Notes: generated by a model from the letters alone, not told the origin. A stretch of 64,000 bases of DNA from an uncultured Candidatus Saccharimonas sp. (GCA_943358095.1 CALRGT010000003.1:6169-70168); one strand, 5' to 3'; counted from the stretch's first letter, positions 3,153-50,668 are shown. Numbers and translations: made by a program.

Positions 3153-3180
3153 CTCAGCCGTAAGGCTGGGGCTTTTTCTT
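3153..3180 (+). terminator. intrinsic terminator after tRNA-Phe
   Basis: Hairpin CTCAGCC-gtaa-GGCTGGG followed by CTTTTTCTTT. Confidence 0.75.
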
Positions 3181-3322
3181 TGGCCTAGGCTTTGCCTAGG
3201 GACTCGAACTGCTACAGTTCGCTAATTCACTGAAAAGTAAGTTTCTTTTCAGTGAATTATATCCTGAGACCGAGTCGCATCGTGCGACGCGGCTCGAGGG
3301 AGTATTCTGGGAGGAGCCTCCA
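3181..3322 (+). repeat. tRNA-Phe-derived trailer (inverted + direct self-fragments)
   Basis: GACTCGAACTG (3201-3211) is the exact reverse complement of the tRNA-Phe T-loop region CAGTTCGAGTC, followed by a direct CAGTTCG. A 14-bp hairpin carries CTGAAAAG (compare anticodon loop CTGAAGAG). It ends with TCTGGGAGGAGCCtCCA versus tRNA TCTGGGAGGAGCCaCCA. Confidence 0.6.
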
Positions 3323-3331
3323 ATAAAAACA

Positions 3332-3613
3332 TTAGTCTAGATGCTTAAAATTACGCGTTAACAGCCAAAGCATACAAAGTCCAAGAAGTCCGGTGAGTAT
3401 ATCTGTTAAGTAAGAGGAATCAACCGGCAATAACCTATCTAAAATATTCCAGGACGCACGCCAAAATAACACTGTTGCTATTGCGATGCCGATATAATGC
3501 ACTTGTCCAAGTTTTCGCTTCTTCATCAACCCATCATAATCGTTTATGTCTTTTAAGTCTATTGCCTTAGTGTTTGTTTGTGCACTTGTCTCTGTAGTTA
3601 CATTTTGATACAA
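3332..3613 (-). CDS. small membrane protein, unknown function
   Basis: 93-aa ORF with two C-terminal hydrophobic helices. No family recognised. Confidence 0.5.
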   Translation of the reverse strand: MYQNVTTETSAQTNTKAIDLKDINDYDGLMKKRKLGQVHYIGIAIATVLFWRASWNILDRLLPVDSSYLTDILTGLLGLCMLWLLTRNFKHLD

Positions 3614-6615: not shown

Positions 6616-6841
6616 ATTTCGTTAAAAAGCTTATGTCTATTGACATTATGGTGTAAAATCTAAATAGCTTCCTTAAAAAAGAAGTAGGTTTCCGCTAAAG
6701 CCAAAAGCTGGTTGTGGAAACAGAAAGTTTGAAGTCTAGGGGATACCCTGGGAATATTCAATACTACTAAAAAAGATATCGAGCAATATACTCGATTCAT
6801 CGGTTAGAGCTTTGATTGCTGCAGAAATCAAAACTCCGACT

Positions 6842-7493: not shown

Positions 7494-9104
7494 ATGCACG
7501 CAAAGAGTATAATAGGACACAGTTATATGGATCCGTCTACAAAAAAATCTGATATATTTATTTTGCTCCAAGAGCAGTTATTAAATGCGCGCGCGAACGA
7601 CCAGCTTATTCGCGCCGACAACACCAAAGGCAAGAAGATCACCGTGCCTAATACAGGCAAGGCTATATCGTCAGCCTACGAGCAGTTGCGCAATGCTGCC
7701 GAGTACGCAGAAGATCATTTAATTTTGCAGAGAGCGATTAGAAGATTTTTGAAGCGTAGTTTGTTTATCGGCAAGGTTGAGTTGGTTGATCTTGGTGAGG
7801 ATTTAATTATAGAACTCGTGCAAGCAGGTTATCTTAAGGAGACGGAGCTAGGCTCAAAAGTTGCCGGCTCTATTAGTCAGTTAGCAGCTAGCTACGAGGA
7901 TGTTTATCACCGGCTTCGGCAATCGCATGTTACTAAGGTACAGGCTCAAGATTGGGTGCTATCTATATTGTCGGTAGAGATTGAGTCGATCCTGAACCCT
8001 CAAAACCATCATTACGCACTATTATATGTTGCTCAGTATCATTTTATGGATATGCTGCCGCGCCGAAAACTTGTTGTTAATCAAACCGAAGATGATCAAT
8101 ACGAGATTTCATTATATGCGGCCGTACATCTTGCCTTGTTTAAGTCAGATATAGCAGTGGTTAGGCACGATATAATGCGCGTTTATCAGCAATCTCCAGA
8201 CGATTTGAAGGGTTTTATATCTATGAACCGACATATTGACGATTTGTATCTCGCCAAGCTAACTCATCGACTTAGGCGTAATGTCGGCAAGAACGGTGCT
8301 CCGTTTAGGATTCTTAAAAGTATGTGCGACGATTTCCCCAATACAGTAGACATGCTCAGTGATCGTCAGCAGTTTCTGCAGGCATACAGACGACAAATTG
8401 ATATCGAGTTCGAGAATGTACACAAAAGAGTGAACAAGGGAATTGTTAAGAGTATTTTCTTTATCCTTATTACAAAAGTTATTATCGGTGTTGGCATTGA
8501 GGTTCCCTATGATCTTGTAACTACTGGCGCAGTAGCTGGCGTTCCGTTGCTGGTGAATCTTGCCACGCCTCCACTTTATATGGCAAGTCTAAAGTTTAGT
8601 CTTAAATCGCCACAATCACTTAGCAAGCAGACTCTCATAGAATATATAAACACTATGATTTACACTGACGACAAGCCGCCTCTATTGATGGTTAGGCCGG
8701 TGTCTAGTAGTCGATATATGGTTAATTGGGTGTATTCTATTTTGTTCTTTGTGCCGTTCGCTTTGCTTGTTTATATTCTAAAATTGCTAGATTTTAATAT
8801 TCCACAGATGATCATATTCTTTACATTCTTATCTACTGCCAGCTTCCTAGGTTTCCGACTGAGCAGTAAGATTCGTGAAGTTGAATTCGGCGATCGTCAG
8901 TCATCCGGTTTTATGACGTCATTAAGAGATTTTTTCTATCTGCCGTTTATAGTTTTTGGGCAATGGATATCTGGTAAGTATTCTAAGATTAATTTAGTAA
9001 GTAATGTGCTGGATATTGTTATAGAGTTGCCGTTAAAGACAATACTTAAATTAGCGCGTCAGTGGGTTACTTTCCTAGATCAAAAACAAGAAGAAATATA
9101 CTAG
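7494..9104 (+). CDS. hypothetical membrane protein (soluble N-terminal ~320 aa, C-terminal multi-TM region)
   Basis: 536-aa ORF with 4-6 hydrophobic helices in the C-terminal third. No family confidently recognised. Confidence 0.6.
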   Translation: MHAKSIIGHSYMDPSTKKSDIFILLQEQLLNARANDQLIRADNTKGKKITVPNTGKAISSAYEQLRNAAEYAEDHLILQRAIRRFLKRSLFIGKVELVDLGEDLIIELVQAGYLKETELGSKVAGSISQLAASYEDVYHRLRQSHVTKVQAQDWVLSILSVEIESILNPQNHHYALLYVAQYHFMDMLPRRKLVVNQTEDDQYEISLYAAVHLALFKSDIAVVRHDIMRVYQQSPDDLKGFISMNRHIDDLYLAKLTHRLRRNVGKNGAPFRILKSMCDDFPNTVDMLSDRQQFLQAYRRQIDIEFENVHKRVNKGIVKSIFFILITKVIIGVGIEVPYDLVTTGAVAGVPLLVNLATPPLYMASLKFSLKSPQSLSKQTLIEYINTMIYTDDKPPLLMVRPVSSSRYMVNWVYSILFFVPFALLVYILKLLDFNIPQMIIFFTFLSTASFLGFRLSSKIREVEFGDRQSSGFMTSLRDFFYLPFIVFGQWISGKYSKINLVSNVLDIVIELPLKTILKLARQWVTFLDQKQEEIY

Positions 9105-20996: not shown

Positions 20997-23432
20997 ATGA
21001 AGAGATATAACCCAAAAGATATTGAAGTTAAGTGGCAAAAGTGGTGGGACGACAACAAGACCTACCAAGTAGATTTTGACAGCCCAAAAACTAAGTATGT
21101 CGGAATGGGTATGTTTAATTACCCAAGTGGCGCAGGTATTCATATTGGCCACGCTATGAGCTATACGGTAAGTGACGTTATGGCACGTTTTAAGCGCCAG
21201 CAAGGTTACGAAAGCTATAACCCGATTGGTTGGGACGCTTTTGGATTGCCAGCCGAAAATTATGCAATCAAGACTGGCGTGTCGCCTCAAGCCAATATGG
21301 CTACTATTATTCCGGGCTATCACAAGCAATATAAGGCTATGGGTTGGAGCAATGACTGGTCTAAAGAGATTTCTACTCACGAGCCAACGTACTACAAATG
21401 GACTCAATGGATATTCACGCAAATGTTTAAGCAGGGATTGGCTTATCAAGATGCGCGAATGCAGTGGTGGTGCGAAAAATGCCAAACAGTGTTGTCGAAC
21501 GAGCAAGTTATTGACAGTAAATGTTGGAGGCATGATAGTGCTGATGATGTAGAGGTCGCTAAGCGTGAAGTTAAGCAATGGTTTTTCAAGATTACTGATT
21601 ATGCCGATGAGTTGCTTGAGGCGATTGACGACTTAAACTGGACTGATACTGTTAAAACTGCACAGAAAAATTGGATTGGTAAAAGCAAAGGCGCGGAAGT
21701 GACTTTTGCAGTTGATGCTAGCGACGAAAAGCTCGTAGTATTTACTACTAGGCCGGACACATTATATGGTGCGACATTTATGGTGCTGGCGCCAGAGCAT
21801 GATCTAGTCGACAAGTTAACGACTGAACCTCAAAAAGCAGAAGTAAGTAACTACGTTAAACAGGCTACTAAAAAATCAGAAGTAGAACGCCAGGCCAGTA
21901 AAGATAAAACCGGTGTATTTACTGGAGCTTATGCCACTAATCCTATTAACCAAGCCAAGATTCCAATTTGGATTGCTGACTATGTTTTGGTTGGTTATGG
22001 CACTGGTGCGATTATGGCTGTGCCAGCCCACGACGAGCGAGACAAGGAATTTGCAGTCAAGTACAGTCTGCCAATAATTAAAGTTGTCGATACGCCTGAA
22101 GACGATATTAGTGTCGAGGCTAAAATGATTAATTCTGACACCTTTAATGGCTTAATGTCGAGCGATGCCCGCGAAAAAATTGTTGCAGATCTGCAGGTGA
22201 ATAATCTGGCAGAATCAAAAACTACCTTTAAAATTCGTGATTGGAGTGTGTCGCGTCAACGTTATTGGGGAGCGCCAATACCGATTATTAATTGTCAAAA
22301 ATGTGACCAAGTTTTGGTACCGGACGACCAATTACCGGTCGTACTTCCGGAACTGGAAGACTTTCAGCCAAGTGGCGATGGTCGTAGCGCGCTAGCTAGA
22401 GCCAGTGAATGGCTTAAAGTTAAGTGTCCAAATTGTGGCGGCGATGCCGAGCGCGAGACCGATACGCTAGATACTTATATTTGTAGTAGTTGGTATATGC
22501 TGCGCTATCTTGATCCGCATAATAGTGAGGCAATATTCAACAGCCAGCAAGTAAATAAATGGCTACCGATTGATTTTTATAATGGCGCTGATCATGCCAC
22601 TGCTCATATGATATATGCTCGTTTTATGACTAGATTCTTCCACAAGCTTGGTCTTATAGACAATCCTGAGCCATTCAAGAAGTTCTTGTTTAACGGTAAG
22701 GTCACCGCTGCTGACGGCCAGATGTTTAGCAAGAGTAAGGGTAATGGCGTTGATCCACTTGAGATTATAAATAGCGGATATGGAGCCGACGCCTTAAGGA
22801 CATATTTGATGTTTGCTGCGCCACTAGAATTGTCTGCAAAATGGGATGCTCAGGGCGTGCCTGGTACTTACAGGTTCCTGAATAGAGTATGGAATATTGT
22901 TCAAGAATATCTAGAATTACAGCCAAGTTCAGAAACTAATAACGATGCTCCACTGCGCATTATTCATCCAGCTATTAAGAAAGTTACTTCTGACATTGAA
23001 GAGCAAAAATACAATACGGCAATCGCTGCTATGATGCAGGCCTGTAATAGTCTGTATGACCTGAAGGCAATGAGCGGTTTTGATGATACGACTAGTTGGC
23101 GACAAGCTTTGGAGAGTTTAGTGATGTTGGTTACTCCGTTTGCTCCACATATGTCTGAGCAGCTATGGCATGATCTTGGTCACGAGGATAGTGTAAATAA
23201 GGGCCACTGGCCTGTATGGGATGACAAGTTCTTGGCTTCCGACACAATGACGATAGCAGTGCAGGTTAATGGTAAATTACGAGCCGAAATAGAGGTTCCG
23301 TCAGACGCCGATCAATCTGCTGTATTGGCGGCCGCTAAAGCAAATCTAAAAGTCGCTGGCTATTTGACCAGCGACCCTATTAAAACAATTTATGTGCCCG
23401 GCAGACTACTTAGTTTAGTCGTCCGCGCGTAA
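20997..23432 (+). CDS. leuS: leucine--tRNA ligase
   Basis: 811 aa; HIGH-type motif (GIHIGHAMSY), KMSKS variant (MFSKSKGN), CP1 editing domain. Confidence 0.97.
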   Translation: MKRYNPKDIEVKWQKWWDDNKTYQVDFDSPKTKYVGMGMFNYPSGAGIHIGHAMSYTVSDVMARFKRQQGYESYNPIGWDAFGLPAENYAIKTGVSPQANMATIIPGYHKQYKAMGWSNDWSKEISTHEPTYYKWTQWIFTQMFKQGLAYQDARMQWWCEKCQTVLSNEQVIDSKCWRHDSADDVEVAKREVKQWFFKITDYADELLEAIDDLNWTDTVKTAQKNWIGKSKGAEVTFAVDASDEKLVVFTTRPDTLYGATFMVLAPEHDLVDKLTTEPQKAEVSNYVKQATKKSEVERQASKDKTGVFTGAYATNPINQAKIPIWIADYVLVGYGTGAIMAVPAHDERDKEFAVKYSLPIIKVVDTPEDDISVEAKMINSDTFNGLMSSDAREKIVADLQVNNLAESKTTFKIRDWSVSRQRYWGAPIPIINCQKCDQVLVPDDQLPVVLPELEDFQPSGDGRSALARASEWLKVKCPNCGGDAERETDTLDTYICSSWYMLRYLDPHNSEAIFNSQQVNKWLPIDFYNGADHATAHMIYARFMTRFFHKLGLIDNPEPFKKFLFNGKVTAADGQMFSKSKGNGVDPLEIINSGYGADALRTYLMFAAPLELSAKWDAQGVPGTYRFLNRVWNIVQEYLELQPSSETNNDAPLRIIHPAIKKVTSDIEEQKYNTAIAAMMQACNSLYDLKAMSGFDDTTSWRQALESLVMLVTPFAPHMSEQLWHDLGHEDSVNKGHWPVWDDKFLASDTMTIAVQVNGKLRAEIEVPSDADQSAVLAAAKANLKVAGYLTSDPIKTIYVPGRLLSLVVRA

Positions 23433-25088: not shown

Positions 25089-25790
25089 ATGCAAGATTTT
25101 TCGACTTATAAGCAGTTCGCAACAGATAAACTAGCAGTAGAATTTAACGATTTAGGCATTCTAGTGACAGCATTTACTCATCGTTCGTACGTAAACGAAC
25201 ACCGTAAGACTGTCCAGACTCATAACGAGCGTCTCGAGTTTTTGGGTGATGCCGTATTAGAGCTAGTCGTAACCGAGTATTTATATGGTAGTTTTGATGA
25301 TCCAGAGGGTGTGCTTACAAACTGGCGCAGTGCACTTGTAAGAACAGAAAGTATTAGTGCAGCTGCTACTCGTCAAGAGTTAGAGCCGCTGCTTCGTCTA
25401 AGTCGTGGTGAGAAGCGTGGTACGGCTCGCGCTAGAGCTCAGATTCTAGCCAATTGTTACGAGGCTGTTATTGGTGCGTTGTATGTTGACCAAGGCTATG
25501 ATGCTGCTAAGAAATTTATTGAGAATAGTTTGCTTACTACTTTTAGTGAAATTCTAAAGACTGGTTCGTGGATGGATCCAAAATCACATTTACAAGAGTT
25601 AGTTCAGAGCCATGAAGGTCATACTCCTATCTATAGAGTGATTAGCGAGGAAGGTCCTGACCATGACAAGGTTTTTACTGTTGGTGTATTAGTTGATGGC
25701 GAGATTAAGGGGCAGGGGCAGGGGCCTAGTAAGCAGGCTGGGCAGCAGAAGGCGGCGGAGTCGGCATTAGAGGCTTATAAACAGGTTTAG
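25089..25790 (+). CDS. rnc: ribonuclease III
   Basis: RNase III signature NERLEFLGDAVL and a C-terminal dsRBD (GPDHDKVFTV...AEQQAAESAL-like). Confidence 0.95.
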   Translation: MQDFSTYKQFATDKLAVEFNDLGILVTAFTHRSYVNEHRKTVQTHNERLEFLGDAVLELVVTEYLYGSFDDPEGVLTNWRSALVRTESISAAATRQELEPLLRLSRGEKRGTARARAQILANCYEAVIGALYVDQGYDAAKKFIENSLLTTFSEILKTGSWMDPKSHLQELVQSHEGHTPIYRVISEEGPDHDKVFTVGVLVDGEIKGQGQGPSKQAGQQKAAESALEAYKQV

Positions 25791-25877
25791 GGTAGTCGAC
25801 ACGCATCTTTGGCACATTTTCGGCGAACTATTATTTGATGGAATCGTTTTTCCTAGTTCCCTAAAAGGGGCTATTTA

Positions 25878-26097
25878 GCCACTTTTGATTCGGCAAAAGT
25901 GGCGCAAAACCGAGGGGCGGTGGCCACAACTCGATATAGCTTCCTAACAAGGAGCACAACACAGCCTGCGGAACTAGCTGCTTCGCAGCGTCAGACAGTC
26001 CTCGGCAGGAAGTGTTGTTGTGCTCTTGTAGGAATCTATCTCGGGTTGCACCCAGGCCCCACATAAGCCCATGGATGCCCGCTGGAGGCGGGCTATT
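25878..26097 (+). ncRNA. candidate structured RNA / palindromic repeat element, copy 1 (unclassified)
   Basis: 10-bp hairpin GCCACTTTTG/CAAAAGTGGC, then a long imperfect rod helix. Ends in terminator GCCCGC-tggag-GCGGGC + TATT. Paralogous to complement(28400..28621) with paired substitutions. Confidence 0.45.
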
Positions 26098-26143
26098 GAT
26101 TGGTATATAGTTAGAGCAAATCAAGGTCTGCTATGATTAAATC

Positions 26144-26680
26144 ATGTCAGTAGATAAATCACGTAATTTTGAATTAGAAATAGATGAAAATCTAAAACTC
26201 CGTCAGTTAATTCCCGACGAAGCCAATTTAATATTTAGTATTGTGGATAGTGAAAGAGAGTATTTAGGTAAGTGGTTGCCGTGGGTCAAAACAACCCAAA
26301 CACCAGAAGATTCTAAAGATTTTATTGAAAGTATTATAGAAAAGCGACAAGAAGGCTCAGAATTTGGTTTTGGAATAATCGTCAATGACCAGCCAAAAGG
26401 CCATATAAGCTTAATGCATGTTAGTGATGGCAAAGGGCCAGAAATCGGTTATTGGATATCAAGCCAGGAATCAGGCAAGGGCATAACTAGTAAAGCGGCT
26501 AAAACGGTCACCGAATTTGGTTTTAAGACATTAGGTCTAGATAAAATAACAATTCGAGCCGACCACAGAAATATAGCTAGCAACAAAGTCGCCGAAAAGT
26601 TGGGCTATATCCTGACGGGTCAAGAGTATGCGGGCACGGAAACTGCAATGAATGTTTGGGAAAAGACTAAACCTATATAA
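26144..26680 (+). CDS. GNAT family N-acetyltransferase (RimJ/RimL-like)
   Basis: 178 aa; acetyl-CoA motif region GKGITSKAAKTVTEFGF and C-terminal N..A..VAEKLGY. Confidence 0.85.
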   Translation: MSVDKSRNFELEIDENLKLRQLIPDEANLIFSIVDSEREYLGKWLPWVKTTQTPEDSKDFIESIIEKRQEGSEFGFGIIVNDQPKGHISLMHVSDGKGPEIGYWISSQESGKGITSKAAKTVTEFGFKTLGLDKITIRADHRNIASNKVAEKLGYILTGQEYAGTETAMNVWEKTKPI

Positions 26681-26690
26681 GACCATGGAT

Positions 26691-26713
26691 GCCCGCTGGA
26701 GGCGGGCTATTTT
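26691..26713 (+). terminator. intrinsic terminator after GNAT gene (third copy of the repeat's terminator module)
   Basis: GCCCGC-tggag-GCGGGC + TATTTT. The ~35 nt AAGACCATGGATGCCCGCTGGAGGCGGGCTATT are shared with 26063-26097 and complement(28400-28436). Confidence 0.8.
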
Positions 26714-26730
26714 GATGAGTGAGGATGGGG

Positions 26731-27510
26731 TTAGTTTTTGGAGCTGAGTGTACCTAGGACTATTATCCAGGCCAATAACGATTTAGCGATTAGGCTGAGC
26801 CAAACATAGGCGCGCTCGCCGTATGCATAGTCCTTCCATTTGCCGATCTTTTTGTACTGTAACCACATGTTGACAGCAAAAGTATTGAACAGTAAGAACG
26901 TTAACAAAAAGCCGAGCTTGGCGTACCACGGTATAGAATCGGCTATATTGCTAGTACTTGCCCAGAAGTATATGCCACCGATTATCCAAGGTACGATGCC
27001 AGCAATAATACCTATATTAAACGGGAACCATGATGTTTTCTTGGTTAGTTGATTGTAACGTTCCATTTCTAGACCCCAGATGTTCATAAGGAAATTAAGA
27101 GTAAAAACAAAAACTACGCTCGGCAACTCGTTTAATCCACCCATCATAAGTAGGACGGTAATCATCAGTGATGAACTGATGGAGTATTCCAGCCAGCGCA
27201 TAGGGTTTATGCCTTTTTTGATATTGGCTTCATAGCGGCGATAGTACATTGGTGAGGCTACGAAAAGATGAAAAAAGGCTGCAACTAGCAGAAATAGTGG
27301 ACCAACAACTGCTATAGGTATATCAACAAGTATCTTGGTCGCAAAAGTGAAGTCACCATCAGGAGCCACATCAAAAAAGCGAGTAATAATAGGTATCTTG
27401 AGCGAATAGTTCAAAATTATGAGCATTATCGTCGCCTGCAAAAGATGCACGGAACCCATAATAATATTAAATCGTCGAAGTTTTTTGGTCTGGTTGTTTT
27501 TAAATATCAT
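26731..27510 (-). CDS. heliorhodopsin
   Basis: 7 TM. Recalled heliorhodopsin 48C12 motifs are all present: FNxxxGxVHLLQ, MRWLEYSISSSLMI, GIIAGIVPWI, GERAYVWLSLIAKSLLAW (Schiff-base Lys). Confidence 0.9.
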   Translation of the reverse strand: MIFKNNQTKKLRRFNIIMGSVHLLQATIMLIILNYSLKIPIITRFFDVAPDGDFTFATKILVDIPIAVVGPLFLLVAAFFHLFVASPMYYRRYEANIKKGINPMRWLEYSISSSLMITVLLMMGGLNELPSVVFVFTLNFLMNIWGLEMERYNQLTKKTSWFPFNIGIIAGIVPWIIGGIYFWASTSNIADSIPWYAKLGFLLTFLLFNTFAVNMWLQYKKIGKWKDYAYGERAYVWLSLIAKSLLAWIIVLGTLSSKN

Positions 27511-27518
27511 ATAAATAA

Positions 27519-27546
27519 ATTATAGCATAAGCACAATGCCGTCAAA
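27519..27546 (-). promoter_or_regulatory. sigma70-type promoter of heliorhodopsin, near-leaderless
   Basis: Minus strand has TTTGAC(G), a 16-nt spacer, then TATAAT. Only 8 nt lie between the -10 box and the ATG. Confidence 0.6.
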
Positions 27547-27554
27547 CCCTTCCT

Positions 27555-27580
27555 GCCACTTTTGCCGAATCAAAAGTGGC
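27555..27580. repeat. third copy of the 26-nt hairpin GCCACTTTTG-6 nt-CAAAAGTGGC
   Basis: Same hairpin as at 25878-25903 and 28596-28621. Here it sits immediately upstream of the heliorhodopsin -35 box. Confidence 0.8.
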
Positions 27581-27674
27581 ATAATCACGATAAGCTTATC
27601 AGGAAAAGGCGCTTGTCATATTAAGCAGAAGTATTCTAGCCTTTTGCCCGTAATGAATGCTCTATTATTTCTAA

Positions 27675-27959
27675 ATGAGCGATATTAACTTCTGCCCACA
27701 TTGCGGTCACGACTTAGCGATGTATCAAAATAACGATTACTCTACTGCAGACAACACAGAGGATGAAAATCTTTTAATAGCTGTAAAATGCGTAATAGAG
27801 GCCAATAAAGCGTCGACATCACTGCTTCAAAGAAAGATGAGGATCGGTTACGGTATGGCAGCGCGTTTGATAGAGACGATGGAAGAACGGGGCTATATAG
27901 GGCCTGCTATTGACTCTAAACCACGAGATGTACTAATAGATAGTATTGATCGAATGTAA
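27675..27959 (+). CDS. zinc-ribbon + stand-alone FtsK gamma (winged-helix) domain protein
   Basis: N-terminal CPHCGH. The C-terminal [32 protein letters not shown] matches the FtsK/SpoIIIE gamma domain. Confidence 0.8.
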
Positions 27960-27963
27960 TGGT

Positions 27964-28401
27964 ATGAATATTTACCTAGATATTGACGGAGTGATAGTCG
28001 CGAATGATAATAACGCAGCTAATTATGCTGCGGAGTTTATTGAGTACGTATTAAATAAGTTCCCAGACACAACCTACTGGCTGACTACTCATTGTCAAGG
28101 TGACGCAAGTCAACCGATTAAGGACATTGGTCATTTGTTTGATGCCAAAACCATTGATTATATGAAGATGATTAAACCGACAACTTGGTTAGACTCACCA
28201 AATAAAACATCGGCTATAGATTTTAGCCAACCCTTTTTATGGTTTGACGACGACTGTTTTGACGGCGAGAGGCAAGAGTTAATCAAGAACAATGCACTAG
28301 ATAATTGGATAGAAGTTGACTTAAGTAAAGATCCAGACCAACTGCTAAAATTCATAACCAGTTTTCCGATTGCTTCTGAAATGGCACAAGAAGGCTCATA
28401 A
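27964..28401 (+). CDS. hypothetical protein, HAD-like N-terminal motif
   Basis: MNIYLDIDGVIV resembles HAD motif I (DxDGV). The rest is unrecognised. The ORF track's start at 27946 overlaps the upstream gene. Confidence 0.5.
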   Translation: MNIYLDIDGVIVANDNNAANYAAEFIEYVLNKFPDTTYWLTTHCQGDASQPIKDIGHLFDAKTIDYMKMIKPTTWLDSPNKTSAIDFSQPFLWFDDDCFDGERQELIKNNALDNWIEVDLSKDPDQLLKFITSFPIASEMAQEGS

Positions 28402-28621
28402 AAAATAGCCCGCCTCCAGCGGGCATCCATGGTCTTATGTGGGGCCTGGACGCGACCCGAAATAGATTCCTACAAAAAGACAACAAACTACTCCCCGAGG
28501 ACTGTTTGAAGTCCGATAGGACAAGTTCCGGAGGGCGTGTTGTCCTTTTTGTTAGGAAGCTATATCGAGTTGTGGCCACTGCCCCTCGGTTTTGCGCCAC
28601 TTTTGCCGAATCAAAAGTGGC
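28400..28621 (-). ncRNA. candidate structured RNA / palindromic repeat element, copy 2 (unclassified)
   Basis: The reverse complement aligns over its full length with 25878-26097: the first 73 nt have 1 difference, the last 72 nt about 5, and the central 75 nt are diverged but still fold. Minus-strand terminator + TTTTTT at 28400-28424. Confidence 0.45.
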
Positions 28622-28750
28622 ATAAATAAACTCCGCATCTGCGGAGTAAAAATAACTATATATAAGAAAAAAACGTTAGAAAATATCATAGACTGTAAGA
28701 AACGTGGCATAATCCGCAAAAAGCGCAATTGCGAGCCAGCAAGCCAGCAG

Positions 28751-28779
28751 TTGACTTATCTGTTATTCCCCTGTAAAAT
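28751..28779 (+). promoter_or_regulatory. sigma70-type promoter upstream of rpsP
   Basis: TTGACT, 17-nt spacer, TAAAAT, about 45 nt upstream of the rpsP ATG. Confidence 0.6.
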
Positions 28780-28825
28780 ATTCTTTATATATTCATAAAG
28801 TTAAGACCGGGAGTGATATTAATAA

Positions 28826-29209
28826 ATGTTAGCAATTCGTATGCAACGCACAGGCCGAAAAGGACACGCTAGTTTCAGAGTTGTCGTTCAGGATTCTTCA
28901 CAGACACCAACTAGTGGTAAGGTCGTTGTTCAAATTGGTAGCTATGATCCTCACACCAAGGCTGCAATTATTTCTAAAGACAAAGCTGAGTTCTATCTAG
29001 AGCACGGTGCACAGCCATCTGAAAGAGTAGCTTATCTTCTTAAAAAAGAAGGTGTTAAAATGCCTACTTGGGTAGAAAAAGCGACTAAAAAATCTGCTAC
29101 TACTCGTCACCCTGAAAAACTACGCCGAAACCGACCACCAGAGCCAAAAGCTGAAGCTCCAGTCGAAGAAGAAACTGCCGACGTTGTCGAAGCAGTACCT
29201 GCCGAATAA
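28826..29209 (+). CDS. rpsP: 30S ribosomal protein S16 (with C-terminal extension)
   Basis: MLAIRMQRTGRKGHASFRVVV is a canonical S16 N-terminus. Basic/Pro-Glu-rich tail. Confidence 0.95.
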   Translation: MLAIRMQRTGRKGHASFRVVVQDSSQTPTSGKVVVQIGSYDPHTKAAIISKDKAEFYLEHGAQPSERVAYLLKKEGVKMPTWVEKATKKSATTRHPEKLRRNRPPEPKAEAPVEEETADVVEAVPAE

Positions 29210-29788: not shown

Positions 29789-30364
29789 TTACTTACTTGT
29801 TGGAAAAGTAGGTTCCAAGTAACCCGGACTATTCGGGGTTATTATATCTGGTGATAATTTGTGAATAAAGGCTGAACGAAAAATAATTCTAGAATCAGGC
29901 CATTCTGGGGTATTGTTTGGCCTGGCGGCGTGCAAGTCGTGATCTGGGTCAAAAACAGAGACAAAACCGTCTGGTGCTGTTACAAAGTTTGCTTCGATAA
30001 ACTTTTTGTCTAATTCGCCGGTTCTCTCTCGTTCTAAAGATTCATCACGCGTAAACAGTGTGCTGGCGTTCTCTCCATTAGCTGTCAGGGCTAGGGTGAC
30101 AAATGTCGCTTCACCAGGTCGTAGACTGTCTCTGTGTACGTCTGTTGAACGATTGCTACAGATAAGGCTTAGGTCACTGCGTTCATTTATCTTTAGAGTT
30201 CGTTCGGGGTTATGATCATTAAATTCGGGCATAAGTATTCGGCCTACCCATTTTGCAAAAATCTCACCACGATGCTTGATTTGGTTGGTACGGCCATATG
30301 AATCGAATTGATCAAAAGGACTAAAAAATTCTTCGCCTAACTCTTTCGCGTCTGCATAAAACAT
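29789..30364 (-). CDS. hypothetical protein, possible 2OG-Fe(II) oxygenase-like fold
   Basis: 191-aa ORF antisense to the rpsP-trmD operon direction. HxD (VHRD) ... H (DLHAA) ... RxxFRS spacing is suggestive only. Confidence 0.35.
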   Translation of the reverse strand: MFYADAKELGEEFFSPFDQFDSYGRTNQIKHRGEIFAKWVGRILMPEFNDHNPERTLKINERSDLSLICSNRSTDVHRDSLRPGEATFVTLALTANGENASTLFTRDESLERERTGELDKKFIEANFVTAPDGFVSVFDPDHDLHAARPNNTPEWPDSRIIFRSAFIHKLSPDIITPNSPGYLEPTFPTSK

Positions 30365-49402: not shown

Positions 49403-49494
49403 AAAATATAAAGAGTGTAGCGAGGGTTCTAGCCCAATGACCTACCGGCAACCTACTAATTAATAGCAAGGTGCTCCATCTAGTCCGTAGTTAT
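49403..49494 (+). promoter_or_regulatory. SAM-I-type riboswitch aptamer upstream of metK
   Basis: The conserved core is readable: AAGAG-tgtagc-GAGGG-ttct-AGCCC-aatGA-cctaCCGGCAACC-...-GGTGCT. The P4 region looks short. Confidence 0.75.
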
Positions 49495-49495
49495 T

Positions 49496-50668
49496 ATGGA
49501 AACGATATTTTGCCAAAACATATCCTTTCCATATATTCACGGGGAAGGATATTTTATTTCAAACTCTACAAAAACAACACTATTTACTAGTGAATCAGTT
49601 GCCGCAGGGCATCCAGACAAAATCTGTGACGCCATAAGTGATGCAATTCTTGACGCAGCCTTAGCGCAAGATCCAAAAACGAGAGCCGGTATTGAGGCGG
49701 TTGCTGGCGCAAATCAGATCAGCCTATTTGGTGAAATTACCACTACCGCCAAACTAGACTATGAGGCGATTGTTCGAGAAGTTATTAAATCTCAAGGTTA
49801 CATTGAGCCAAAGTGGGGCTTTTCTGAAGAGTCAAAGTTCACAAGTTATTTACATCAACAATCGCCAGAGATATCGCAGGGCGTTGACCAAGATGGGGCT
49901 GGCGATCAAGGAATGATGTTTGGTTATGCCTGTAACGAAACCCCAGAACTTATGCCGATGCCGATTACTTTGGCACATGCTTTAGCGCGTAGAATCGACG
50001 AAGTCCGTCAGAAAAAAATACTCGATTATATCCGACCCGACGGCAAGGCGCAGGTTACTGTCGTCTACGAAGATGGCATACCTACTGCTATAGCTAACGC
50101 CGTTATTGCAGTAGCACATTCCGAGCAAGTTAGCGCCGATCAAGTTCGTGCTGGAGTTATTGCTGAGATTATTACCCCAGTTTTAGCTAAATATGGCTTC
50201 ACAGTGAGCGACGAAAATATAACTGTAAATGGCACAGGCTTATGGCATATACCAGGTCCAGAATCAGACGCAGGATTAACTGGTAGAAAAATTGTAGTAG
50301 ATACATATGGTGGTTACGCTCGTGTTGGAGGAGGCGCCTTTAGCGGTAAAGATCCGAGCAAGGTGGACCGTTCTGGCGCTTATGCGGCACGATATATTGC
50401 TAAAAATATTGTTGCTGCCGGTCTAGCGGATAAATGTGAGGTTGGTCTGGCATATGTAATTGGTAAGCCGAATCCTTTAATGCAAACAATTGAAACATTT
50501 GGAACTAGTAAAGTTTCTGACAAAGAACTTTACGACTTCAAAGATAAATTGATAGATACTTCGGTACGAGGAATAGTCGAAAAATTGCAGCTACTTAGGC
50601 CGATTTATTCTGCGACAAGCGCATATGGACATTTTGGTAAGCCAGAATTGCCGTGGGAGCAGGGGTAG
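49496..50668 (+). CDS. metK: S-adenosylmethionine synthetase
   Basis: LFTSESVAAGHPDKICD, GAGDQGMMFGYA and GGGAFSGKDPSKVDRS motifs. The ORF-track ATG 49496 lies inside the riboswitch platform. The conserved N-terminus is better served by ATT at 49556 (see findings). Confidence 0.95.
   Translation: METIFCQNISFPYIHGEGYFISNSTKTTLFTSESVAAGHPDKICDAISDAILDAALAQDPKTRAGIEAVAGANQISLFGEITTTAKLDYEAIVREVIKSQGYIEPKWGFSEESKFTSYLHQQSPEISQGVDQDGAGDQGMMFGYACNETPELMPMPITLAHALARRIDEVRQKKILDYIRPDGKAQVTVVYEDGIPTAIANAVIAVAHSEQVSADQVRAGVIAEIITPVLAKYGFTVSDENITVNGTGLWHIPGPESDAGLTGRKIVVDTYGGYARVGGGAFSGKDPSKVDRSGAYAARYIAKNIVAAGLADKCEVGLAYVIGKPNPLMQTIETFGTSKVSDKELYDFKDKLIDTSVRGIVEKLQLLRPIYSATSAYGHFGKPELPWEQG
49520..49559 (+). 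terminator. riboswitch expression-platform hairpin (terminator/SD sequestrator)
   Basis: 11-bp stem ATATCCTTTCC / GGGAAGGATAT followed by TTTTATTT. The 3' arm contains the GGAAGGA Shine-Dalgarno. Confidence 0.7.

Follow-up and report, generated by a model that had tools for sequence, protein, structure and literature searches.

The 64-kb stretch of a freshwater Candidatus Saccharimonas genome analyzed here (the window, to which all coordinates refer) carries between rnc and rpsP an interval, 25878-28621, that is framed by a long inverted repeat. A first-pass annotation had described inverted repeats of ~220 bp at these positions and this was borne out: blastn aligns 25878-26097 (+) with 28621-28404 (-) in a single 227-nt match of 87% identity (E ~1e-72), and a repeat search splits the arms into 25878-25975/28524-28621 (98 nt, 93% complementary) and 26015-26097/28404-28486 (83 nt, 90%). 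Each arm is a complete structured RNA-like unit of ~225 nt with its own intrinsic terminator, which we call R and read 5' to 3' on the terminator-bearing strand. Since copy 1 occupies the + and copy 2 the - strand, the terminators face inward. No further full copy was detected in the 64-kb window by blastn and covariance model (CM) search. Between the arms there are two partial R modules that had been overlooked so far, a 3' fragment, which gives rise to a 40-nt direct repeat (26058-26097 = 26672-26711), and a solo 5' hairpin (Table 1).

Assignment of the flanking genes by Pfam agrees with the first-pass annotation, with nusB-NUDIX-rnc to the left and rpsP-KH-(orf191)-trmD to the right. The same applies to the lack of mobility genes, as neither gene calls nor Pfam revealed a transposase or recombinase domain between or beside the arms, and no transposase was found in the whole window. 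Three of the four enclosed genes keep their labels by Pfam (GNAT, heliorhodopsin and FtsK-gamma), whereas the HAD-like label of the fourth, a 151-amino-acid (aa) open reading frame (ORF), was dropped as it is unsupported by Pfam, NCBIfam, PADLOC and PDB; the best PDB match is not significant (E = 0.11), and a match over a DxDGV-like N-terminus has E = 0.56. None of the window's four interval genes has a PADLOC match. Two arm-crossing ORFs of 55 and 82 aa were rejected as coding because the frames are broken by indels between the copies. The stop codon of the GNAT gene falls inside the R 3' fragment. Upstream of the heliorhodopsin gene a promoter-like sequence, TTGACG-15-TATAAT, can be read on the minus strand at ~27520-27546, and a promoter scan placed the rpsP promoter (TTGACT-17-TAAAAT) at 28751-28779.

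Table 1. Genes and R-derived features of the rnc-rpsP interval in the window.
Feature	Position	Strand	Evidence and remarks
rnc (RNase III), conserved left border of the hot spot	25089-25790	+	Pfam Ribonucleas_3_3 and dsrm; protein 100% identical in L001
R copy 1, left arm	25878-26103	+	CM R1 79 bits, E = 1.7e-24; covariation in alignment A5
Copy 1, palindromic 5' hairpin	25878-25903	+	
Copy 1, rod	~25914-26068	+	
Copy 1, conserved apical junction	25964-26010	+	core motif 25969-26005
Copy 1, linker		+	ACAUAAGCCCAUGGAU
Copy 1, intrinsic terminator	26077-26093	+	followed by T-tail
GNAT acetyltransferase	26144-26680	+	Pfam Acetyltransf_3, 6.7e-27
R 3'-end fragment (linker and terminator)	26672-26713	+	42 nt; terminator 26691-26707; repeat search, blastn
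Heliorhodopsin	26731-27510	-	Pfam, 2.6e-81
Solo R 5' hairpin	27555-27580	-	repeat search, blastn, variant comparison
Small protein with zinc ribbon and FtsK-gamma (winged helix)	27675-27959	+	Pfam FtsK_gamma, 5.6e-24
151-aa ORF, no family assigned	27946-28401	+	no Pfam, NCBIfam or PADLOC match
R copy 2, right arm	28398-28621	-	CM R1 61.5 bits; terminator scan
Copy 2, 5' hairpin	28621-28596	-	
Copy 2, core	28530-28495	-	
Copy 2, terminator	28424-28408	-	followed by T-tail
Vestigial R 5'-hairpin arm and flank	28700-28714	+	AAACGTGGCATAATC; repeat search
rpsP promoter and rpsP, conserved right border	28751-29209	+	Pfam S16; homologous to the L002 empty site

The 5' end of R is a perfect 10+6+10 palindrome, GCCACUUUUG-AUUCGG-CAAAAGUGGC, which in general form reads NNNNCUUUUG-loop-CAAAAGNNNN and is followed by GCAAAAC. 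The middle part is a long imperfect rod of ~150 nt. Its cap is a conserved irregular helix, GCCUGCGGAACU/AGUCCUCGGC, whose 3' loop reads NUCARAC and whose apical hairpin varies. The intrinsic terminator, GCCCGCUGGAGGCGGGC plus a U-tail, is reached via a single-stranded linker that contains the palindrome CCAUGG (AAGACCAUGG, in the window arms ACAUAAGNCCAUGGAU). The folds of copy 1 and copy 2 have energies of -107.9 and -93.9 kcal/mol, respectively, each with z = -6.3 versus shuffled controls. R would be transcribed as RNA from the terminator-carrying strand, the apical helix-loop looks like a putative protein-binding site and the CCAUGG linker could pair either in cis, as in variants with an extra hairpin, or between molecules. 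Directly upstream of R copy 2, in the rpsP-divergent spacer, there is another terminator-like hairpin at 28622-28650 (-), ACUCCGCAGAUGCGGAGU followed by UUUAUUUAU.

R has a conserved, strand-specific secondary structure that is kept by compensatory substitutions. In an alignment of 16 full-length copies from Saccharibacteria (A5), 26 of the 51 predicted pairs show compensatory changes, and 93% of the cells are paired in comparison to at most 49% with partners slid; the observed values were reached in none of 500 shuffles. Frequent G-U pairs are a feature of the terminator-bearing strand alone (U7-G23 in 11 sequences and U57-G189 in 13), which indicates that this strand is the functional one. 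The outermost pair of the core helix (-5:+1) covaries between GC, CG, UA and AU and the apical hairpin covaries freely. An alternative CCUG:CAGG register for the core-closing helix is possible in the Saccharimonas copies and was set aside, as the family-wide support is for CC:GG together with the covarying (-5:+1) pair.

A truncated R variant has only the core CGGAACUWG-hairpin-NUCARACARUCCUCGG in common with the full copies. A metagenome scan with this core pattern revealed 38 loci in Saccharibacteria, Spirochaetota and others, at which the flanking stems are unrelated in sequence yet complementary (e.g., L091, L103, L105, L109, L123). In Spirochaetota, R is located upstream of the proA promoter of contig L090 and is absent at the orthologous proA site of three relatives, where the sequence is unrelated, so that a clean boundary of insertion could not be drawn. 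Other neighbors of R are likewise unrelated to each other and include infC, pyrG, polA and 16S rRNA. The soil Saccharibacteria L097 and L118 carry one R each in the rnc-rpsP gap, and an architecture regular expression identified a homologue with divergent core directly after rnc in L019. CM R1, which is too tied to the exact core and missed the L019 homologue, had no matches among 79 further rnc loci of Saccharibacteria or at the loci of heliorhodopsin homologues; based on both searches, R at the rnc site is absent from most other species. A scan of a viral collection with three patterns yielded zero matches. No protein family is enriched among the ~135 distinct proteins encoded next to R, and one tyrosine recombinase, Xer-like in appearance, was found near R, in L112 only. 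Among the domains encoded near R copies, one alone is related to transposition: a 347-aa ORF in L124 (3-1046), two genes away from an R(-), weakly matches the N-terminal domain of TnsA-like endonucleases (3.8e-5). In L093, a Saccharibacteria 16S rRNA gene (1527-2194) contains an insertion of ~159 nt near position 80, and an R copy is located ~1.1 kb upstream.

Rfam 15 contains no family that reaches the gathering threshold for R or for any other part of the interval, and no relevant match was obtained even at E<=10 for 25700-28900 or at E<=10/<=5 for L082 and ten other R-bearing loci. Weak OmrA-B and Yfr8 matches were judged as noise and supposed resemblances to 6S RNA, RNase P RNA and tmRNA have no model support. 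The 10-mer GGAAGCAGCC in one variant, considered as a hint to signal recognition particle (SRP) RNA, is ordinary stem sequence pairing with GGCUGCUUC. R is a putative structured RNA family that is not yet catalogued, covaries strongly and is present in at least two phyla.

The comparison of the rnc-rpsP interval between genomes was based on an RNase III protein scan, which yielded 80 loci, nearly all from Saccharibacteria. An RNase III with 100% identity is encoded by the Candidatus Saccharimonas genome L001 from a freshwater reservoir metagenome. In the species with both genes the gap between rnc and rpsP is <=200 bp in 48 of 72 and >500 bp in 18 of 72, and in L002, the closest relative with the interval (Rnc 84% identical), the genes are 129 bp apart without any repeat. 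Relative to this empty site the insertion in the window extends from ~25826 to ~28750. As the gap is short in most species, the rnc-rpsP junction is a recurrent insertion hot spot and the 2.9 kb in the window are accessory DNA, in agreement with the first-pass annotation, which had placed accessory genes between core genes. It had also proposed to look for target-site duplications just outside 25878 and 28621; the alignment to the L002 empty site revealed none, and the flanking hexamers, TATTTA before the left and ATAAAT after the right arm, prolong the inverted repeat and form no direct repeat. Between rnc and rpsP of L019, beside the divergent R, another, unrelated pair of inverted repeats (6679-6837 and 7714-7862) forms rods and brackets a minus-strand ORF of 0.9 kb, which from its sequence we take to encode a putative membrane protein; enclosure of cargo by rod pairs may be common at the rnc-rpsP junction.

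The exact heliorhodopsin protein was present in 14 contigs with differing layouts, and the metagenome scan added more. Altogether at least eight layouts of the locus exist within the same species, with the same heliorhodopsin and flanks of 97-100% identity. The layout of the window is found in L081 and L084. In L082, L083, L085 and L087 the GNAT gene is missing and rnc is followed by R, heliorhodopsin, a truncated R, a type I restriction-modification (R-M) system and RadC, whereas L086 and L001 have the order rnc-R-ORF208-R-GNAT-heliorhodopsin. The contig of L001, the ~98% identical species representative in GTDB, ends inside an R copy (3180-3339), an example of the breaks that R repeats cause in short-read assemblies of the species. 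L095 carries R-heliorhodopsin-R-HKD/SNF2 helicase-DUF4391 and further on FtsK-gamma. L108 reads ORF208-R-heliorhodopsin, then a type IIG R-M system, a DEAD helicase, T5orf172 and finally FtsK-gamma-ORF151-R(-)-rpsP, with other genes in between. Further layouts contain SRA-HNH plus Dcm and PLD-SNF2 (L110, L114), Fic (L111, L121) or HNH, MazG and an AbiO/Nhi-like helicase (L125). By PADLOC and Pfam the defense cargo comprises type I and type IIG R-M, HKD plus Snf2, SRA-HNH, the AbiO/Nhi-like helicase and Fic, and with this variable, defense-rich content between core genes the locus is a defense-island hot spot.

The GNAT gene is present or absent independently of other cargo and other genes can intervene between rnc and GNAT. 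The FtsK-gamma gene is always paired with the 151-aa ORF beside R(-) and rpsP, and in other strains both are separated from heliorhodopsin by 8-10 kb of defense genes. As the genes vary independently, the four window genes are not one unit and the idea of a single four-gene cassette has to be given up. The four-gene set was found only at the rnc-rpsP junction. Heliorhodopsin homologues of 73-80% identity reside in unrelated contexts without R. In contigs from ~13 independent samples heliorhodopsin is always convergent with rnc and FtsK-gamma always co-oriented with rpsP; none of the contigs that link heliorhodopsin to rnc or to FtsK-gamma and rpsP shows inversion or orientation heterogeneity. 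An integrase was not detected in or near any variant array, and there is no IntI integrase with attI and Pc beside the array, which is flanked directly by rnc and rpsP.

Where R copies occur in both orientations they are always convergent, with the hairpins outward and the terminators inward (7 of 7 loci, at least three lineages). Besides the window, this arrangement exists at rnc-rpsP in L108, L114 and L125, at infC-comM of another species with cargo that differs between the contigs (L113, L106), as an empty pair with terminators ~15 nt apart (L092, L100), and in a different lineage with strongly diverged arms (L109). The rnc-rpsP island has at least one (+) R on the rnc side and a (-) R adjoining rpsP, and extra (+) copies are mostly found ahead of + strand cargo. 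The recurrence of such pairs identifies the inverted repeat as the normal paired arrangement of R. On this reading the inverted orientation marks neither a transposon nor an invertible switch. The first-pass view of the arms as simple ends of a cassette does not hold either, because they are structured R copies with own terminators and compensatory substitutions, and R also exists as single copy, in direct arrays and in other phyla.

The junctions between the strain variants coincide with R modules. In detail, GNAT is bounded by two 40-nt terminator modules and the junction in the strains without GNAT (L082, L083, L085, L087) is exactly between them, and ORF208 has a direct R copy on either side. 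Upstream of heliorhodopsin the variants are identical through GCCACTTTTG and then diverge: a full R follows in L095, a fragment in L108, the hairpin only in the window, and an internally deleted R joined at CAAAAG in L082, L110 and L114. The crossovers of the solo hairpin and of the truncated R copies are located at GCCACTTTTG or CAAAAG. The solo hairpin of the window is a hybrid, whose left flank and left arm resemble (+) R copies of other strains and whose loop and right flank resemble (-) copies, which points to a deletion between oppositely oriented hairpins via their identical arms. R copies are mosaics of the sequence types of copy 1 and copy 2. Such patterns are in line with recombination between repeats via homology and microhomology. 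As the constant flank holds the heliorhodopsin promoter-like sequence, selection also restricts which breakpoint positions survive.

Therefore, we assume that R genes in pairs delimit a hot spot of recombination, with R modules and core flanks as the sites where homologous recombination exchanges the cargo, an explanation that we consider probable. R copies punctuate a hypervariable accessory and defense island at rnc-rpsP in the freshwater Candidatus Saccharimonas population, and cargo would be gained, lost and swapped one module at a time by recombination that involves RecA and probably natural transformation and uses the R modules, as repeats, together with the conserved flanks of the core genes. 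R itself may serve as homology handle or insulator. Several points weigh against this assumption. Homologous recombination alone leaves the convergent-only rule unexplained, and the sporadic occurrence of R between close relatives (absent in L002 and in the three Spirochaetota relatives of L090) is also expected of a mobile element; both points keep mobile and site-specific explanations alive. The clustering of breakpoints at the 10+6+10 palindrome could reflect a site-specific enzyme encoded elsewhere. As regards genome-wide R copy number, the other genomes were viewed over 16-kb flanks, and as the scan pattern fixes the core sequence, the conservation of the core is partly built in. Finally, the promoter scan revealed no clear sigma-70 promoter upstream of either R copy in the window, the intrinsic terminators are the sole pointers to transcription, and R might act as structured DNA instead of RNA.

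A mobile origin, as the first-pass annotation had considered in less specific form, could be imagined in form of a foldback-type non-autonomous element, R(+)...R(-), with ~220-bp terminal inverted repeats, which is mobilized in trans and captures cargo in its center. The palindromic hairpins would be the outer ends and nested insertions would yield arrays of several (+) followed by several (-) copies. Inverted repeats of the required length are indeed present at both ends, arrays order (+) copies left and (-) copies right, convergent pairs recur at different core junctions and lineages including empty tail-to-tail pairs (L092/L100, L109), and the same site is free of R in the closest relative L002 and in the Spirochaetota relatives. 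Nevertheless, we regard such an element as unlikely, given the missing target-site duplication, the many single copies (L118, L097, L090, L091, L105, L123), the lack of a transposase among the neighboring proteins, of which the lone L112 recombinase looks Xer-like, and a conserved part that is the rod apex and not the ends. Moreover, the strongly diverged arms of L109 each kept their fold by compensatory changes, which argues for selection on each copy and not on termini. A site-specific system similar to integrons is in our opinion quite improbable. The 5' hairpin and/or the terminator hairpin would then be the sites of a trans-encoded tyrosine, serine or HUH enzyme that inserts and excises units of R plus gene(s) like attC cassettes. 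Most (+) cargo has its own preceding R (R-ORF208, R-GNAT, R-SNF2, R-HsdM, R'-Fic), variant junctions lie at the hairpin arm and the terminator module, the 42-nt copy of the R 3' end behind GNAT resembles an att duplication, and we read lox/dif-type core-site geometry in the 5' hairpin. On the other hand, no integrase was found near any array and the attC R''/R' consensus is absent. The spacer of the solo hairpin is inverted relative to its left flank and thus not a product of conservative recombination within the spacer, several truncated copies better fit microhomology deletions at CAAAAG, and selection for the heliorhodopsin promoter in the constant left flank could position the breakpoints alone. 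A related idea goes one step further and takes R as a new class of structured RNA or single-stranded DNA site, with convergent pairs as landing pad for R-plus-gene cassettes and a dedicated mechanism; we see little probability for this. Saccharibacteria and other bacteria would then have a cassette-array system without integrase, or with a trans-encoded one, and the apical junction or the 10+6+10 palindrome would be the element recognized.

R could also act mainly in cis, either as 3' untranslated region or terminator of the upstream operon, for instance as an autoregulatory substrate of RNase III, or as attenuator leader of the cargo, and would have multiplied passively with the genes served. 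This is not exclusive of turnover by homologous recombination, and it seems rather unlikely to us. R is located 45-90 nt past the rnc stop codon in four lineages (window, L019, L097, L118), where the stretch between stop codon and R is free of promoters and terminators, its terminator is mostly just upstream of same-strand genes, and a rod of ~60 bp is a plausible RNase III substrate. By contrast, R(-) beside rpsP and comM has no same-strand gene upstream or downstream, R also lies beside unrelated genes as described above, and RNase III, which has little sequence specificity, cannot account for the invariant apical junction. The least probable explanation, which we consider very improbable indeed, is inversion of the 2.3-kb segment as a switch, either by RecA, as considered in the first-pass annotation, or by an invertase. 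Although 220 bp of 87% identity are in principle long enough for homologous inversion, only one gene orientation exists in all contigs from the ~13 samples, an invertase gene is absent from and beside the segment, each gene has its own orientation-independent context, and flipping would create no obvious coupling of promoter and gene.

Compared with known systems, the locus is a variant of the island hot-spot theme that is organized by an uncatalogued, putative structured RNA family. Genomic and defense-island hot spots, including those anchored at tRNA or tmRNA genes, share strain-variable cargo between invariant core genes and a cargo rich in R-M systems, helicase-nucleases and toxins. As in islands of the tRNA/tmRNA type, a small, putative structured RNA gene marks the border and its 3' fragment is duplicated after the GNAT cassette; a direct repeat of the 3' end, which in such islands is expected at the distal border, exists at the GNAT unit (40 nt), but the outer borders of the interval are inverted full copies. 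Unlike in these islands, the border RNA is neither tRNA nor tmRNA, no variant contains an integrase of any kind including the tyrosine type, the borders are convergent full copies and not direct att repeats, and the cassettes are kept apart by several internal copies. Integron arrays and CALINs, which are attC clusters without an integron integrase, also consist of gene cassettes separated by imperfect-palindrome hairpin repeats, with arrays possible without a nearby integrase. In contrast to integron sites, R has ~225 nt, is conserved at the apex and not at the stem base, carries a terminator and, on inspection of the R sequences, has no GTTRRRY/RYYYAAC pair at its base; moreover, the cassettes of the R island are in mixed orientation with own promoters, and R is single in other phyla.

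With repeats like ERIC/IRU, Correia/NEMIS, REP/BIME-REPIN, BOX and RUP, R shares the intergenic location, the formation of rods, a multi-copy nature at 100-200 nt, the sporadic distribution between related genomes and optional internal insertions, and such repeats can serve as terminators, RNA-processing sites or recombination substrates. R differs from them by its asymmetry (5' hairpin, apical junction, linker, terminator), by extensive compensatory evolution, by its cross-phylum occurrence with unrelated stems and because neither a RAYT-like gene nor a duplicated target site, TA or other, was observed for R. Like SRP 4.5S RNA, it has a long variable stem that ends near the apex in a conserved asymmetric loop and helix, which is the pattern expected of a protein-binding RNA, and the rod shape is reminiscent of 6S RNA. 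Apart from the missing Rfam match and its multi-copy, sporadic nature, R differs from SRP RNA by the lack of the domain IV motifs (GNAR loop, AGCA) and from 6S RNA by the lack of a 6S-type central bubble.

Saccharibacteria have tiny genomes with few recognizable mobile elements, and how their defense and accessory genes are shuffled is poorly understood. The rnc-rpsP locus provides a concrete and repeatable architecture in this context, with convergent structured elements that frame a hot spot between core genes and strain-specific cargo including a heliorhodopsin. R is a candidate for an Rfam entry and for functional study, and if it is true that R directs the capture of cassettes, episymbiotic bacteria would have a new way to exchange genes.

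Some features elsewhere in the window should be mentioned. A 191-aa ORF at 29789-30364 (-), the orf191 of the right flank, lies between the KH (KhpA-like) gene and trmD but in the opposite orientation; it has no Pfam or NCBIfam match, and a 40% identical homologue is encoded in the same place in L002. For leuS (20997-23432), tblastn matches to LeuRS are split into two blocks ~400-500 bp apart in many relatives (L004, L008, L018, L019 and others), pointing to either a variable insertion in this gene or a domain with high divergence. Finally, a SAM-I (S-box) riboswitch was identified at 49403-49511 (+), with 57.9 bits versus a gathering score of 44.4.

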